Source: Escherichia coli (GTDB taxonomy: Bacteria; Pseudomonadota; Gammaproteobacteria; Enterobacterales; Enterobacteriaceae). Taken from it: a stretch of 64,000 nt of DNA. Where the stretch lies: the NCBI RefSeq assembly GCF_003334765.1, contig NZ_QOWT01000012.1; one strand, written 5' to 3'. The number at the start of each line of letters is the position of its first letter. Position 1 is the first letter of the stretch. Shown here piece by piece: positions 53,338 to 54,091 of the stretch. The notes beneath the pieces were generated by a model, which worked only from the letters and a program-made list of their open reading frames with translations, was not told the origin of the DNA and did not search any database. A program made the translations under genes and the position numbers.

Positions 53338-53613
53338 TCATGCATACAGTATCGCCTGTACGCGCCAGTTATCAGGCTGCTGGTCTTCGTACATGGTAAT
53401 AATGCGGTACCATGACGCACCTTGTTCATCGGCCTTTAACGCCACGATACGTTCCACGTCCTGCGGATCCCCTGAAATATTGCTAACTGAGATCTGACCT
53501 ATTTCATTCAGGCCCGTCACGCAGTCAGCACTGGCGAATTCTGCAGACTGTGCCGTGGCGCTCGCAGGATAAGTCACTAATTGCAGCGAGGGTGAGGCAA
53601 GTAATTGTTTCAT
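53338..53613 (-). CDS. yjfN: small periplasmic YdgH/BhsA/McbA-like protein
   Basis: ORF 53338..53640; start trimmed to MKQLLASPSLQ; signal peptide and C-terminal WYRIxxxY-like motif. Confidence 0.7.
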   Translation of the reverse strand: MKQLLASPSLQLVTYPASATAQSAEFASADCVTGLNEIGQISVSNISGDPQDVERIVALKADEQGASWYRIITMYEDQQPDNWRVQAILYA

Positions 53614-53761
53614 CGTCAGCTCCATTTTTCGTTTCCCCACATGTTGCAGGGCATTCCATCGCGGTAATAAACGCCCAGGCTTCCAGCCGGTAATTTATTG
53701 TGCACAGGTAAACGCATAGGGACGCAAAGCAATGTAAAGCTGACTATGTAAGTTGTCTGAT

Positions 53762-54091
53762 TTATTTACGGTACAAAATGGCTTGTGAATACCACTGTCC
53801 TGTCACGATGGTTTCGTCCACCATGACGACAACGTAATAATCAGCTTTTGCAGCGACAGCTTTCGCTTTGATTTCTGCTAATGCGTCATCCGGAGAACCC
53901 CGAACCATCGTGCTTACGCTACCTATTCGCTGTAACCCTTGCGTCTGGTCGCGGCGAATCTCTTGCGGATGGTCCGTTACTGGCGGTGCTGGCTGTGGCG
54001 TACCTTGCAGTGCGCTACAGGCACTTAACATCAACACCAATAATAAACTGGCAAACCGGTAAATAACGCTATTACGTTTCCTGCTAACCAT
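53762..54091 (-). CDS. bsmA: biofilm stress and motility lipoprotein BsmA
   Basis: ORF 53762..54190; start trimmed to MVSRKRNSVIYRFASLLLVLMLSACSA (lipobox); C-terminal YdgH/BhsA/McbA-like motif. Confidence 0.75.
   Translation of the reverse strand: MVSRKRNSVIYRFASLLLVLMLSACSALQGTPQPAPPVTDHPQEIRRDQTQGLQRIGSVSTMVRGSPDDALAEIKAKAVAAKADYYVVVMVDETIVTGQWYSQAILYRK

Follow-up and report, generated by a model that had tools for sequence, protein, structure and literature searches.

How three genes for small stress-associated proteins, yjfN, bsmA (yjfO) and yjfY, came to lie within 8.8 kb of one another on the Escherichia coli chromosome, and whether their products share an origin, are the questions raised by this locus. 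An initial annotation of the 64,000-nucleotide stretch of DNA analysed here (the window) had grouped them as a small exported family linked to biofilm and stress, and had read their clustering as local duplication. Our analysis places the three in one known family, and the explanation that we consider quite probable is an ancient tandem duplication of yjfN and bsmA, divergence of the two copies in role, and inclusion of yjfY in the same ancient compact cluster. The genes, the family and the duplication argument are all already covered by databases and by Eletsky et al. 2014 (PMC4092069), which leaves little discovery value in those points. What we add to that work is the reciprocal-best profile relationship of YjfN and BsmA, the division of the family by a loop indel, a putative compact ancestral cluster that includes yjfY, and three features specific to single subfamilies, namely a lipobox, a hydrophobic C-terminus and a CpxR-like box.

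Locus and family membership

The window is E. coli chromosome, and its open reading frames for yjfN, bsmA and yjfY coincide with the RefSeq coordinates, as the initial annotation had placed them (Table 1). The locus is carried by 5425 of 5426 complete E. coli genomes. Over positions 53338-62111 the window differs from K-12 by 1 nt in length, and identity was judged on the proteins, which for YjfN, BsmA and YjfY are identical to those of K-12. The longest reading frame of yjfN reaches a GTG at 53640; a GGAG Shine-Dalgarno sequence lies 6 nt upstream of the ATG annotated as the start, at 53613. By annotation and strand of the reading frames, yjfN and aidB converge, bsmA and yjfP diverge, and yjfY converges with ulaF and diverges from rpsF. 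The earlier description of yjfN and bsmA as convergent on yjfP was thus in error, since both lie on the minus strand and bsmA points away from the plus-strand yjfP.

Table 1. Positions of the genes and elements discussed, numbered from the first nucleotide of the window.
Feature	Coordinates	Strand	Description
yjfN CDS	53338..53613	-	91 aa; RefSeq-annotated; PF07338 match
bsmA (yjfO) CDS	53762..54091	-	109 aa; RefSeq-annotated; NF011433 and PF07338 matches
yjfY CDS	61836..62111	-	91 aa; RefSeq-annotated; PF07338 match
yjfP (esterase)	54273..55022	+	sole gene between bsmA and yjfY where ula is absent
ula block (ulaR, ulaG, ulaABCDEF)	55019..61707		variable block exactly between the yjfP and yjfY 3′ ends
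CpxR-box-like tandem pentamers	53724..53738		within the 148-bp bsmA-yjfN spacer
REP-type palindrome	53283..53312		inverted repeat between the convergent aidB and yjfN 3′ ends
Divergent bsmA/yjfP intergenic region	54092..54272		holds the bsmA promoter region

E. coli has ten genes of the DUF1471 (YdgH/BhsA/McbA-like, PF07338) family, and these are three of them. YjfN, YjfO/BsmA and YjfY are named members in Eletsky et al. 2014 (PMC4092069), where the family is described as having a core of ~55 residues, an alpha+beta fold and an N-terminal export signal, and as confined to Enterobacterales. Profile-HMM assignment bears out this membership for all three proteins (E = 1e-15 to 1e-19), with PF07338 matching YjfN at residues 35-90 (3e-17), BsmA at residues 53-108 (1.2e-15) and YjfY at residues 35-91 (8.3e-20), each over model positions 1-54 or 1-55 of 55. 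The NCBIfam equivalog model for BsmA, NF011433, scores the BsmA of the window at 153.3 bits, above the cut-off of 100, and YjfN (51 bits) and YjfY (32 bits) fall under it.

A sequence search of BsmA against the PDB returned only spurious ribosomal matches, and fold comparison was used for this reason. The AF2 model of BsmA (mean pLDDT 83) consists of a strand at 54-63, a helix at 67-80 and strands at 85-96 and 99-108, with pLDDT >90 from about residue 40 and a mean of 85 in the 31-40 block. That of YjfN (mean pLDDT 81) has a strand at 37-47, a helix at 50-63 and strands at 68-76 and 82-90. In Foldseek, with TM-scores normalised to target length, the BsmA model matched 2m2j (0.80), 4evu (0.76-0.79) and 2ma8 (0.68), and the YjfN model matched 4evu (0.86) and 2m2j (0.81). 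The best matches of the two models were the DUF1471 domains 2m2j, 4evu, 2ma8 and 2jna, followed by RcsF, and the models fit the solved DUF1471 domains at 1.6-2.2 A rmsd. Both proteins are accordingly modelled with the strand, helix and two long strands of the DUF1471 fold, as in SrfN, YahO and the YdgH domains. For YjfY, matches among the solved DUF1471 structures were obtained by sequence (2jna, 9.7e-7; 2ma8, 5.5e-5). With Pfam, NCBIfam, fold comparison and the literature in agreement, the initial assignment to a small exported stress and biofilm family holds, and the three show no difference in kind from the DUF1471 family of Eletsky et al. 2014 (PMC4092069). Its members are small proteins of ~70 mature residues with alpha+beta structure that would be sent to the cell envelope of Enterobacterales, and at 50% identity the family forms ~570 clusters. 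All named homologs that we found come from this order, save for a few records labelled Pseudomonas, which are probably mislabelled or contaminated.

Pairwise alignment separates the three proteins more sharply. BLASTP aligns YjfN with BsmA significantly (30% identity, E = 1e-6), BsmA with YjfY marginally (22%, E = 9e-4), and YjfN with YjfY not at all at E <= 100, so that profile methods were needed for the last pair, whose homology is visible at the profile level only. Profile-profile comparison by hhalign gave E-values of 1e-7 to 7e-14. The C-terminal motif that the initial annotation had quoted as common to the three proved to be out of register. In the alignment, YjfN ASWYRIITMYE and YjfY ATYYHVILMRE pair with BsmA ADYYVVVMVDE, and the BsmA string that had been quoted, GQWYSQAILYRK, is the next strand towards the C-terminus and the last of the domain; the quoted strings are not homologous positions.

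Origin of the gene cluster

The profiles of YjfN and BsmA are reciprocal best matches in hhalign, at a score of 75 from deep profiles and 71 when the profiles hold representatives only, and the next best, YhcN, scores 48-56; these scores vary with profile depth, and the YhcN profile consists of 4 sequences only. YjfN is the best E. coli paralog of BsmA by BLASTP, phmmer and hhalign alike. The best single-sequence match of YjfN is YhcN, at 42 bits versus 29 bits for BsmA. At 72 of 73 species loci bsmA is followed by yjfN in tandem on one strand, and the tandem pair also occurs in Serratia, Nissabacter and an Edaphovirga-like contig. Given random placement of the ten family genes located in K-12 over 4.64 Mb, two would fall within 754 bp with P = 0.014. 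For these two genes the local duplication that was initially proposed appears well supported by the reciprocal-best profiles and the conserved tandem order. The idea is already known through Eletsky et al. 2014 (PMC4092069), where the yjfN/yjfO adjacency is described as consistent with expansion of the family by duplication.

At the DNA level, yjfN, bsmA and yjfY share nothing beyond chance 7-9-mers, which indicates from sequence that the yjfN/bsmA duplication is ancient and not recent; recent duplication or gene conversion was ruled out on the same ground. A neighbour-joining tree of 201 DUF1471 domains (200 bootstraps) recovered subfamilies with support of 85%, 89% and 100%, and no grouping between subfamilies was supported (bootstrap 0-3%). 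As a test of duplication order the tree was set aside, because its deep branches neither support nor reject any order, and the sisterhood of YjfN and BsmA rests on the profile scores together with synteny. In the order of events that we infer, their duplication most likely predates the split between Enterobacteriaceae and Yersiniaceae. Yersinia has bsmA and lacks yjfN, which could reflect loss, or a later duplication that was then transferred.

For yjfY, an origin by local duplication is plausible, a lower grade than for the pair because its best profile matches are a tie, at 35-41, among YjfN, BsmA and the YdgH domains. Its separation from bsmA by 8 kb in E. coli corresponds to the variable ula block, which 44 loci have and 15 lack. 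The distance between yjfP and yjfY at the 15 ula-less loci is 89-180 bp except at one locus, where it is 1362 bp; Serratia and Yersinia likewise lack ula. In ula-less genomes yjfY sits ~1.1 kb upstream of bsmA with yjfP alone between them, and Serratia and the 15 ula-less loci have the compact order yjfY-yjfP-bsmA-yjfN, with three family genes in ~2 kb. This indicates that the 8-kb gap in E. coli is accounted for by the ula block. We propose that yjfY belongs to an ancient compact cluster, rpsF / yjfY / yjfP / bsmA / yjfN / aidB, and that it would stand 8 kb off in E. coli only through the ula block between yjfP and yjfY.

A doubtful but substantial alternative is that yjfN and bsmA alone are local duplicates, and that yjfY arrived independently or copies a YdgH- or YhcN-type gene. 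The ranking of matches for YjfY depends on the method used: single-sequence comparison favours this alternative, with YdgH domain I (40 bits) and YhcN (39 bits) ahead of BsmA (21 bits) and no match to YjfN, and the tied profile scores also fit it, whereas representative-only profiles put YjfN and BsmA nominally first. Position can likewise be read in two ways. In every genome examined, the unrelated, opposite-strand yjfP stands between yjfY and bsmA, but the compact arrangement is common to Enterobacteriaceae and Serratia, and three of the ten family genes fall in 8.8 kb, for which random placement over 4.64 Mb gives P = 0.0013 and chance clustering is unlikely. Also against this alternative is a long-loop indel common to YjfY, YjfN and BsmA. 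Its columns are filled in all YjfN (16), BsmA (11) and YjfY (11) and in YdgH domains I-III, and are gapped in YhcN, BhsA, RclB, YahO and most McbA and YbiJ; this alignment-dependent feature appears to divide the DUF1471 family into long-loop and short-loop groups.

Gene order might instead be maintained by function, with bsmA and yjfN forming a co-transcribed module, perhaps together with yjfP and yjfY. We judge this unlikely. The two genes do share a strand, on which no terminator-like site was found, and are 148 bp apart, but the spacer has strongly conserved blocks of its own, including a CpxR-like box, and although the literature ties both genes to envelope stress, their published regulation is unlike, bsmA being under sigma-S and yjfN within the Cpx iModulon. 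The conservation of the arrangement in 72 of 73 loci and many genera loses force for a module given that the entire rpsF-to-purA neighbourhood is syntenic, so that these genes are not alone in keeping their order. Yersinia keeps bsmA without yjfN, Nissabacter keeps the bsmA-yjfN pair without yjfP and yjfY, and in some Escherichia a 190-270-bp ERIC element lies between bsmA and yjfN. No growth defect is reported for deletion of ydgH combined with deletion of yjfN or bsmA. Finally, a chance or compositional resemblance of three non-homologous proteins, to which the blank YjfN-YjfY and marginal BsmA-YjfY alignments and the out-of-register motif might point, is extremely improbable and is refuted by the end-to-end match of all three to one Pfam model (E <= 1e-15), the profile-profile E-values and the fit of the predicted folds to solved DUF1471 domains.

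Ancient local duplication, the reading that we prefer, has parallels within the family, in which the closest relatives are neighbouring copies (YjfN/BsmA, YbiJ/McbA and the three YdgH domains). YbiJ and McbA have the highest hhalign subfamily score (92) and, like YjfN and BsmA, are encoded by linked genes, 3.9 kb apart; unlike yjfN and bsmA, they have three unrelated genes (ybiI, ybiX and fiu) between them. YdgH domains I-III are mutual best matches and physical neighbours as YjfN and BsmA are, but through triplication inside one gene, whereas yjfN, bsmA and yjfY are separate genes. The peroxide and acid stress protein YhcN, which matches YjfN with 38% identity over 53 residues and is a near-best match of YjfY, also has the NCBIfam model that is the best sub-threshold match for both. 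It differs from the three in its unlinked locus at 3.385 Mb. YhcN has the short-loop domain form, a C-terminal Lys and no lipobox, and its profile score with YjfN is below that of YjfN with BsmA.

Anchoring, export and C-termini

After duplication, yjfN and bsmA probably assumed different roles, and they would make a clear small case of divergence in anchoring (lipoprotein versus soluble), in C-termini (basic in BsmA versus hydrophobic and DegP-linked in YjfN) and, apparently, in promoters (sigma-S versus Cpx). The features described below also provide testable handles on the biochemical role of BsmA and YjfY.

BsmA carries a lipobox, L22-S23-A24-C25, followed by a short Pro-rich segment (QGTPQPAPP) and then the DUF1471 domain, and its signal reaches a peak 9-residue Kyte-Doolittle hydropathy of 2.90. 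Assessed against the lipobox pattern [LVI][ASTVI][GAS]C that closes the signal peptide, with sorting decided by the +2 residue, BsmA is a predicted lipoprotein. In an alignment of 8 sequences L22, S23 and C25 do not vary, and nearly all of 65 orthologs retain [AG]-C. The +2 residue is Ser and not Asp, and the established +2 rule then points to the outer membrane. BsmA may thus have become a lipoprotein that is sorted by Lol to the outer membrane, a location that we infer from Ser +2. It has been linked to biofilm and to peroxide and acid tolerance (Weber et al. 2010, as cited in other papers).

The models of BsmA and YjfN both have the outer-membrane lipoprotein stress sensor RcsF (2y1b, 2l8y) among their best structural matches, and the similarity of the DUF1471 and RcsF folds is already published. 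The likeness extends to the lipobox and Pro-rich segment that precede the folded domain of BsmA, and on a speculative, rather improbable reading lipidated BsmA might act as an RcsF-like outer-membrane sensor. RcsF has no detectable sequence relationship to BsmA or YjfN. The low-confidence segment after Cys25 of BsmA is short, given the pLDDT already reached in the 31-40 block, and RcsF has a linker several times that length. According to the literature RcsF contains two disulfides, and mature BsmA has none.

Export signals were judged by inspection and Kyte-Doolittle hydropathy. The claim that all three proteins are exported is in keeping with the lipobox of BsmA and, for YjfY, with a classic n-h-c, Sec-type signal peptide (MFSRVLALLAVLLLSANTWA, then A) that precedes the DUF1471 domain and has a peak 9-residue hydropathy of 3.44. 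It is less secure for YjfN, which is periplasmic according to the literature, as the N-terminus in Escherichia is an unusually weak signal. Its core contains two prolines and peaks at 1.19 over 9 residues, compared with 1.8-2.4 for YjfN of other genera and 2.0-3.4 for the other nine E. coli paralogs. The change stems from an Escherichia-only patch of dense substitutions, ~27 nt long, in the hydrophobic core, through which MKQ-SLALSSLLLSAGLV-... becomes MKQ-LLASPSLQLVTYPA-..., which contains the two prolines and reaches about half the former peak in hydropathy, and the altered core is kept in five Escherichia species. Compensating frameshifts were considered as the source and rejected, as the DNA alignment is gapless and no shifted-frame similarity was seen by eye. 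One speculative and rather improbable reading is that Escherichia YjfN is a deliberately poor Sec substrate, whose export or accumulation would depend on envelope or secretion stress. If true, this would place a post-translational layer atop the Cpx-induced role as a DegP activator.

That role comes from Kim et al. 2018, known to us through citing papers, which describe YjfN as a 'suicide activator' that stimulates DegP proteolysis and is itself degraded. YjfN ends in ...AILYA. Of the 70 complete orthologs, 62 have Ala and 8 have Val as the last residue, a constancy that fits the published role. A hydrophobic C-terminal residue that could engage DegP is therefore present in YjfN by sequence. 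The residue is Leu in Serratia YjfN and Arg in the distant YjfN-like proteins of Nissabacter and the Edaphovirga-like contig; the C-termini of BsmA and YjfY are mostly Lys, Arg or Gln. YjfN would have stayed soluble and gained the hydrophobic end that, in published work, activates DegP as YjfN itself is broken down.

Regulatory and repeat elements

The bsmA-yjfN spacer contains a CpxR-like box, GCAAA-N5-GTAAA on the plus strand and TTTAC-ATTGC-TTTGC on the yjfN strand, located 111-125 nt upstream of the yjfN ATG and with one mismatch to GTAAA-N5-GTAAA. Few blocks of the spacer alignment are as strongly conserved, and the conservation extends across genera. TTTAC-N5-TTT[GT]C occurs at the same position in 65 of 70 loci and a CpxR-box-like match in 69 of 70, and across these 70 loci the pentamers are conserved and the bases between them variable. 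Across the window as a whole, CpxR-like matches are not above chance (5 versus 2.9 expected). In the literature, yjfN belongs to the CpxR iModulon (PMC7657598), and one study combining ChIP and knockout did not count it among the direct CpxR targets. The candidate box is likely part of a promoter region of yjfN's own within the 148-bp spacer, where CpxR may bind. A sigma-70 scan of 53150-54350 found no promoter-like site, and a terminator scan of the same interval found one terminator-like site, inside bsmA and on the wrong strand. Rfam models matched nothing in or adjoining the three genes across the window, the RpsF leader beyond yjfY being the only nearby match.

Published binding of sigma-S to the bsmA promoter suggests that transcription of bsmA starts from a promoter recognised by sigma-S. 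A possible RcsB box upstream of the gene was considered and discarded, as the fit by eye to the consensus was imperfect and no literature support was found. In the conservation profile of the bsmA/yjfP region, built from 68 distinct sequences, the palindrome GGGAACATTCCC at 54121-54132 is conserved, and it is unique in the window. The inverted repeat downstream of yjfN is presumably a REP element, going by the REP consensus, and the GCCGGATGCGGCG core occurs 4 times in the window versus 0.22 expected.

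Family identity and predicted fold

The identity of yjfN, bsmA (yjfO) and yjfY and their membership in the DUF1471 family are virtually certain. As proposed in the initial annotation, profile-HMM assignment places all three proteins on the same Pfam model, PF07338 (YdgH/BhsA/McbA-like, DUF1471), with end-to-end matches for YjfN (3e-17), BsmA (1.2e-15) and YjfY (8.3e-20), and BsmA scores 153 bits against the curated NCBIfam BsmA equivalog, whose cut-off is 100. Each protein is identical to that of K-12 MG1655, and an already described family lists all three genes by name, the K-12 and RefSeq records calling them "protease activator YjfN", "DUF1471 domain-containing putative lipoprotein BsmA" and "DUF1471 domain-containing protein YjfY". 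By BLASTP, YjfN and BsmA align at 30% identity (E = 1e-6) and BsmA and YjfY at 22% (E = 9e-4), and YjfN and YjfY give no alignment. The mutual alignment expected of the three proteins is therefore half borne out by pairwise BLASTP, but homology is clear at the profile level. The shared motif had been set in the wrong register, as the string quoted for BsmA, GQWYSQAILYRK, is the next, C-terminal strand. The strand that aligns reads ASWYRIITMYE in YjfN, ATYYHVILMRE in YjfY and ADYYVVVMVDE in BsmA, and the counterparts of GQWYSQAILYRK in the alignments are NWRVQAILYA in YjfN and NMHASADIYR in YjfY.

AlphaFold2 models of BsmA and YjfN, built from ortholog and family alignments, have mean pLDDT values of 83 (above 90 from about residue 40, with residues 31-40 averaging 85) and 81, respectively, and both predict a strand-helix-strand-strand layout. 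The best Foldseek matches of these models in the PDB are solved DUF1471 domains, with TM-scores, normalised to target length, of 0.80 (BsmA) and 0.81 (YjfN) for the YdgH N-terminal domain (2m2j) and 0.76-0.86 for its C-terminal domain (4evu). SrfN (2ma8/2jna), which YjfY matches directly by sequence, is also among the top matches, followed by the lipoprotein RcsF. That the DUF1471 fold resembles RcsF has already been published (Eletsky et al. 2014, PMC4092069, among others).

The window is E. coli chromosomal DNA. Of 5426 complete E. coli genomes searched, 5425 hold window positions 53200-54300 (1.1 kb), in which RefSeq places aidB, yjfN, bsmA and yjfP, and in 5423 of them the segment is at least 95% identical. 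From the annotated gene coordinates, the limits first assigned to the yjfN-bsmA pair coincide exactly with the yjfN stop codon and the bsmA start codon. Longer mechanical open reading frames enclose yjfN (GTG at 53640) and bsmA (ATG at 54190); the annotated starts are those kept in other genera, and GGAG lies 6 nt upstream of the annotated yjfN ATG. The two genes are not convergent on yjfP, as had been stated: bsmA (-) diverges from yjfP (+), and yjfN converges with aidB. A palindrome at 53283-53312 (GCCGGACAAGGCGC..GCGCCGCATCCGGC), which we take to be REP-type from the REP consensus, separates aidB from yjfN, and its core recurs in the window at 10716, 11931 and 46474.

Coordinates of genes, Rfam matches, a candidate regulatory site and variant loci (L0xx, loci from other genomes in the synteny survey, in their own coordinates)
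Feature	Position	Strand	Remarks
yjfN	53338-53613	-	91 aa, RefSeq annotation
bsmA	53762-54091	-	109 aa, RefSeq annotation
yjfY	61836-62111	-	91 aa, RefSeq annotation
CpxR-box-like TTTAC-ATTGC-TTTGC	53724-53738		148-bp bsmA-yjfN spacer, 111-125 nt upstream of yjfN ATG
Truncated tRNA gene	1-59		Rfam match at window edge
Guanidine-II (mini-ykkC) riboswitch	14244-14290		Rfam match
Two tRNA genes	29793-29865 and 29904-29976		Rfam matches, identical scores
RpsF leader	62357-62441		Rfam match, just past yjfY
bsmA 3'-end element	L007:10331-10671		Escherichia whittamii
bsmA 3'-end element	L008:10331-10747		an E. coli strain
bsmA 3'-end element	L009:10331-10749		Escherichia sp.
Half-kept yjfY copies	L058:8724-8960, L062:8671-8934, L073:8557-8940, L076:8575-8991
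Loci noted with the ula presence/absence block	L025, L032, L033, L050, L053, L058, L062, L065, L067, L071-L076, L083, L087, L088

Origin and conservation of the cluster

The clustering of the three genes is not due to chance. Random placement of the ten family genes on 4.64 Mb brought three of them together within 8.8 kb in only 0.13% of trials, and a pair within 754 bp in 1.4%. An all-against-all domain comparison that added the seven other K-12 family genes (rclB, yahO, ybiJ, mcbA, bhsA, ydgH and yhcN) gave, for single sequences, the neighbour YjfN as the best paralog of BsmA (33.5 bits, then YjfY at 21.6), the unlinked YhcN as that of YjfN (42.4 bits; BsmA, 29.3), and YdgH domain I (40.0 bits) and YhcN (39.3) as those of YjfY. 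Since these best matches disagree, the single-sequence evidence is ambiguous. A profile of twelve E. coli domains searched against 1.84 billion cluster representatives retrieved 571 clusters at E <= 1e-3, and 150 listed of these, the E. coli domains and six extra orthologs per gene were profile-aligned (201 domains). In a neighbour-joining tree of this set (200 bootstraps), the YjfN, BsmA and YjfY subfamilies are supported at 85%, 89% and 100%, and every between-subfamily grouping at 0-3%, so that the tree cannot decide the duplication question.

Profile-profile comparison gives a clearer answer. Each of the YjfN and BsmA subfamilies has the other as its best match, with a score of 75 (71 with database representatives only) and YhcN as runner-up at 48-56. 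The matches of YjfY are weak and tied at 35-41 (YjfN, BsmA and YdgH domains I and III). The other physically linked K-12 pair, ybiJ and mcbA, 3.9 kb apart, likewise comprises neighbours with closest-relative profiles and has the top score of all, 92; the three YdgH domains are also mutual best matches, and closest relatives are therefore neighbours three times in this family. A two-column loop stretch before the last strand is filled in all YjfN, BsmA, YjfY and YdgH domains and gapped in YhcN, BhsA, RclB, YahO and most McbA and YbiJ; this alignment-dependent indel gives independent support. The proposal of local duplication in the initial annotation thus holds for yjfN and bsmA and is plausible for yjfY. 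We regard an ancient tandem duplication as the likely origin of yjfN and bsmA, and the case that yjfY arose by the same local process as evenly balanced. No DNA-level similarity was found among the three genes, which indicates that nothing in their duplication is recent. The yjfN/yjfO adjacency was previously described as consistent with family expansion by gene duplication (Eletsky et al. 2014, PMC4092069).

Synteny was surveyed with a BsmA profile scan of one genome per species (73 loci; Escherichia, Citrobacter, Salmonella, Enterobacter, Leclercia, Lelliottia, Kluyvera, Buttiauxella, Cedecea, Atlantibacter, Franconibacter and others); because the search patterns lay within the BsmA linker, how conserved this linker looks in the set is biased by sampling. 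A same-strand yjfN homolog follows bsmA in 72 of the 73 loci, on a backbone of rpsF(-) yjfY(+) [ula block] yjfP(-) bsmA(+) yjfN(+) aidB(-). The 8-kb distance to yjfY noted initially is the ula block: the ula regulon (ulaR, ulaG and ulaABCDEF; window 55019-61707) is a presence/absence block that fits exactly into the gap separating the 3' end of yjfP from that of yjfY, present in 44 loci and absent from 15 (Buttiauxella, Cedecea, Atlantibacter, Franconibacter, Dryocola, some Citrobacter and Enterobacter). Where it is absent, only 89-180 bp separate these 3' ends (1362 bp in one locus), and all three paralogs fit into about 2 kb. Both states occur inside Citrobacter, Enterobacter and Buttiauxella.

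Serratia (Yersiniaceae) has a complete compact cluster of yjfY-like, yjfP, bsmA-like lipoprotein and yjfN-like genes, the last two accompanied by a DUF350 gene ahead of aidB. Nissabacter has bsmA-like and yjfN-like genes without yjfY and yjfP, and an Edaphovirga-like contig has yjfP, bsmA-like and yjfN-like genes. Yersinia, without yjfN, has yjfY-like, yjfP and bsmA-like genes directly adjoining aidB; in the Y. kristensenii/enterocolitica group (L083:6001-6325), the bsmA-like lipoprotein gene ends 16 bp from aidB. The cluster in Serratia and other distant relatives indicates that it predates the Enterobacteriaceae/Yersiniaceae split.

Among individual loci, a gene for a 643-aa methyl-accepting chemotaxis protein adds about 2.1 kb between yjfN and aidB (L037:10925-12856) and recurs in 24 others (Enterobacter, Leclercia, Lelliottia, Silvania, Huaxiibacter and others); in Nissabacter, a similar receptor gene upstream of bsmA replaces yjfY and yjfP. 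One locus has an in-frame stop close to the bsmA start (L071:~10001-10030), and Leclercia adecarboxylata NCTC13032 has an altered bsmA C-terminus and a split yjfN (L077:7116-7864). Frameshifts in nearly every gene of C. koseri NCTC10786 (L060) look like assembly error, not biology.

Export, C-terminus and upstream region of YjfN

The least ordinary observation here is the Escherichia-specific signal peptide of YjfN. This weakly hydrophobic segment, MKQLLASPSLQLVTYPASATA (window 53551-53613, - strand, residues 1-21), contains two prolines, is common to five Escherichia species and has a peak 9-residue Kyte-Doolittle hydropathy of 1.19, compared with 1.8-2.4 in YjfN of all other genera (e.g. MKRSLALTSLLLSAGLVSTTA) and 2.0-3.4 in the nine other E. 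coli paralogs. AlphaFold2 predicts no helix in it. Its source is a gapless patch of about 27 nt with dense substitutions; a frameshift pair as its origin is unsupported, the alignment being gapless.

YjfN lacks a lipobox. Its last residue is Ala in 62 and Val in 8 of the 70 complete orthologs, and Leu in Serratia; in BsmA and YjfY it is mostly Lys, Arg or Gln. According to papers citing Kim et al. 2018, a hydrophobic C-terminal residue allows YjfN to activate DegP while itself being degraded, and the Ala/Val ending matches this mechanism. Arg is the last residue of the more distant YjfN-like proteins from Nissabacter and from the Edaphovirga-like contig, and the DegP-activating tail may therefore be a later acquisition. 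Cys31 (ADCVTGL, window 53521-53523), the single cysteine of mature YjfN, is kept in most genera and is Arg in Atlantibacter, Franconibacter, some Cedecea and Serratia; mature BsmA and YjfY contain none.

The CpxR-box-like site upstream of yjfN has one mismatch to the consensus GTAAA-N5-GTAAA and, taken alone, is not significant within the window. Within the spacer, it belongs to the best-conserved blocks: 69 of 70 species loci have a CpxR-box-like match and 65 have TTTAC-N5-TTT[GT]C at the same position, with the pentamers kept, the sequence between them variable and a third pentamer often one helical turn (10 bp) upstream. Published data place yjfN in the CpxR iModulon (PMC7657598), although it was not counted among the direct CpxR targets in one study. 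We infer that yjfN has its own putative Cpx-responsive promoter. Further conserved blocks, TGCACAATAAA and CGCGA-GGAATGCCCTG, lie downstream of the site.

Features of BsmA and YjfY

In BsmA, a lipobox (L-S-[AG]-C, with L22, S23 and C25 invariant in aligned orthologs) precedes a short Pro-rich segment and the domain. Lipoprotein sorting follows the residue at +2, and by this established rule the Ser of BsmA implies predicted transfer to the outer membrane. The bsmA/yjfP intergenic region contains strongly conserved blocks; one, which is at least 95% conserved over 68 distinct sequences, holds a perfect palindrome, GGGAACATTCCC, at 54121-54132, 30-41 nt upstream of the bsmA ATG, and others are TTCATAATGTTGAGA and TTTTCATTCGAAAATCGCG. 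In vitro and ChIP-seq work shows that sigma-S RNA polymerase binds and opens the bsmA promoter (PMC4447067); published phenotypes concern biofilm and peroxide/acid tolerance (Eletsky et al. 2014, PMC4092069). A 190-270-bp element, absent from the window, is inserted at the very 3' end of bsmA in three loci, changing ...LYRK to ...LYSK. It contains the ERIC/IRU core AAGTAAGTGACTGGGGTGAGCG, the sequence of the ERIC2 primer.

YjfY carries a classic Sec signal peptide and an extremely conserved N-terminal segment, ARNMDDVQSLGVIYINHNFATE; its induction on plant surfaces and in biofilm has been reported (literature including Eletsky et al. 2014, PMC4092069). Only the N-terminal half of yjfY (AAIKIDRDLAQSMDDVHSLGVVYINHN...) is kept in Franconibacter, Atlantibacter and one record labelled Citrobacter freundii, and beyond it the gene diverges or is cut short; these copies are probably pseudogenes or have a remodelled C-terminus.
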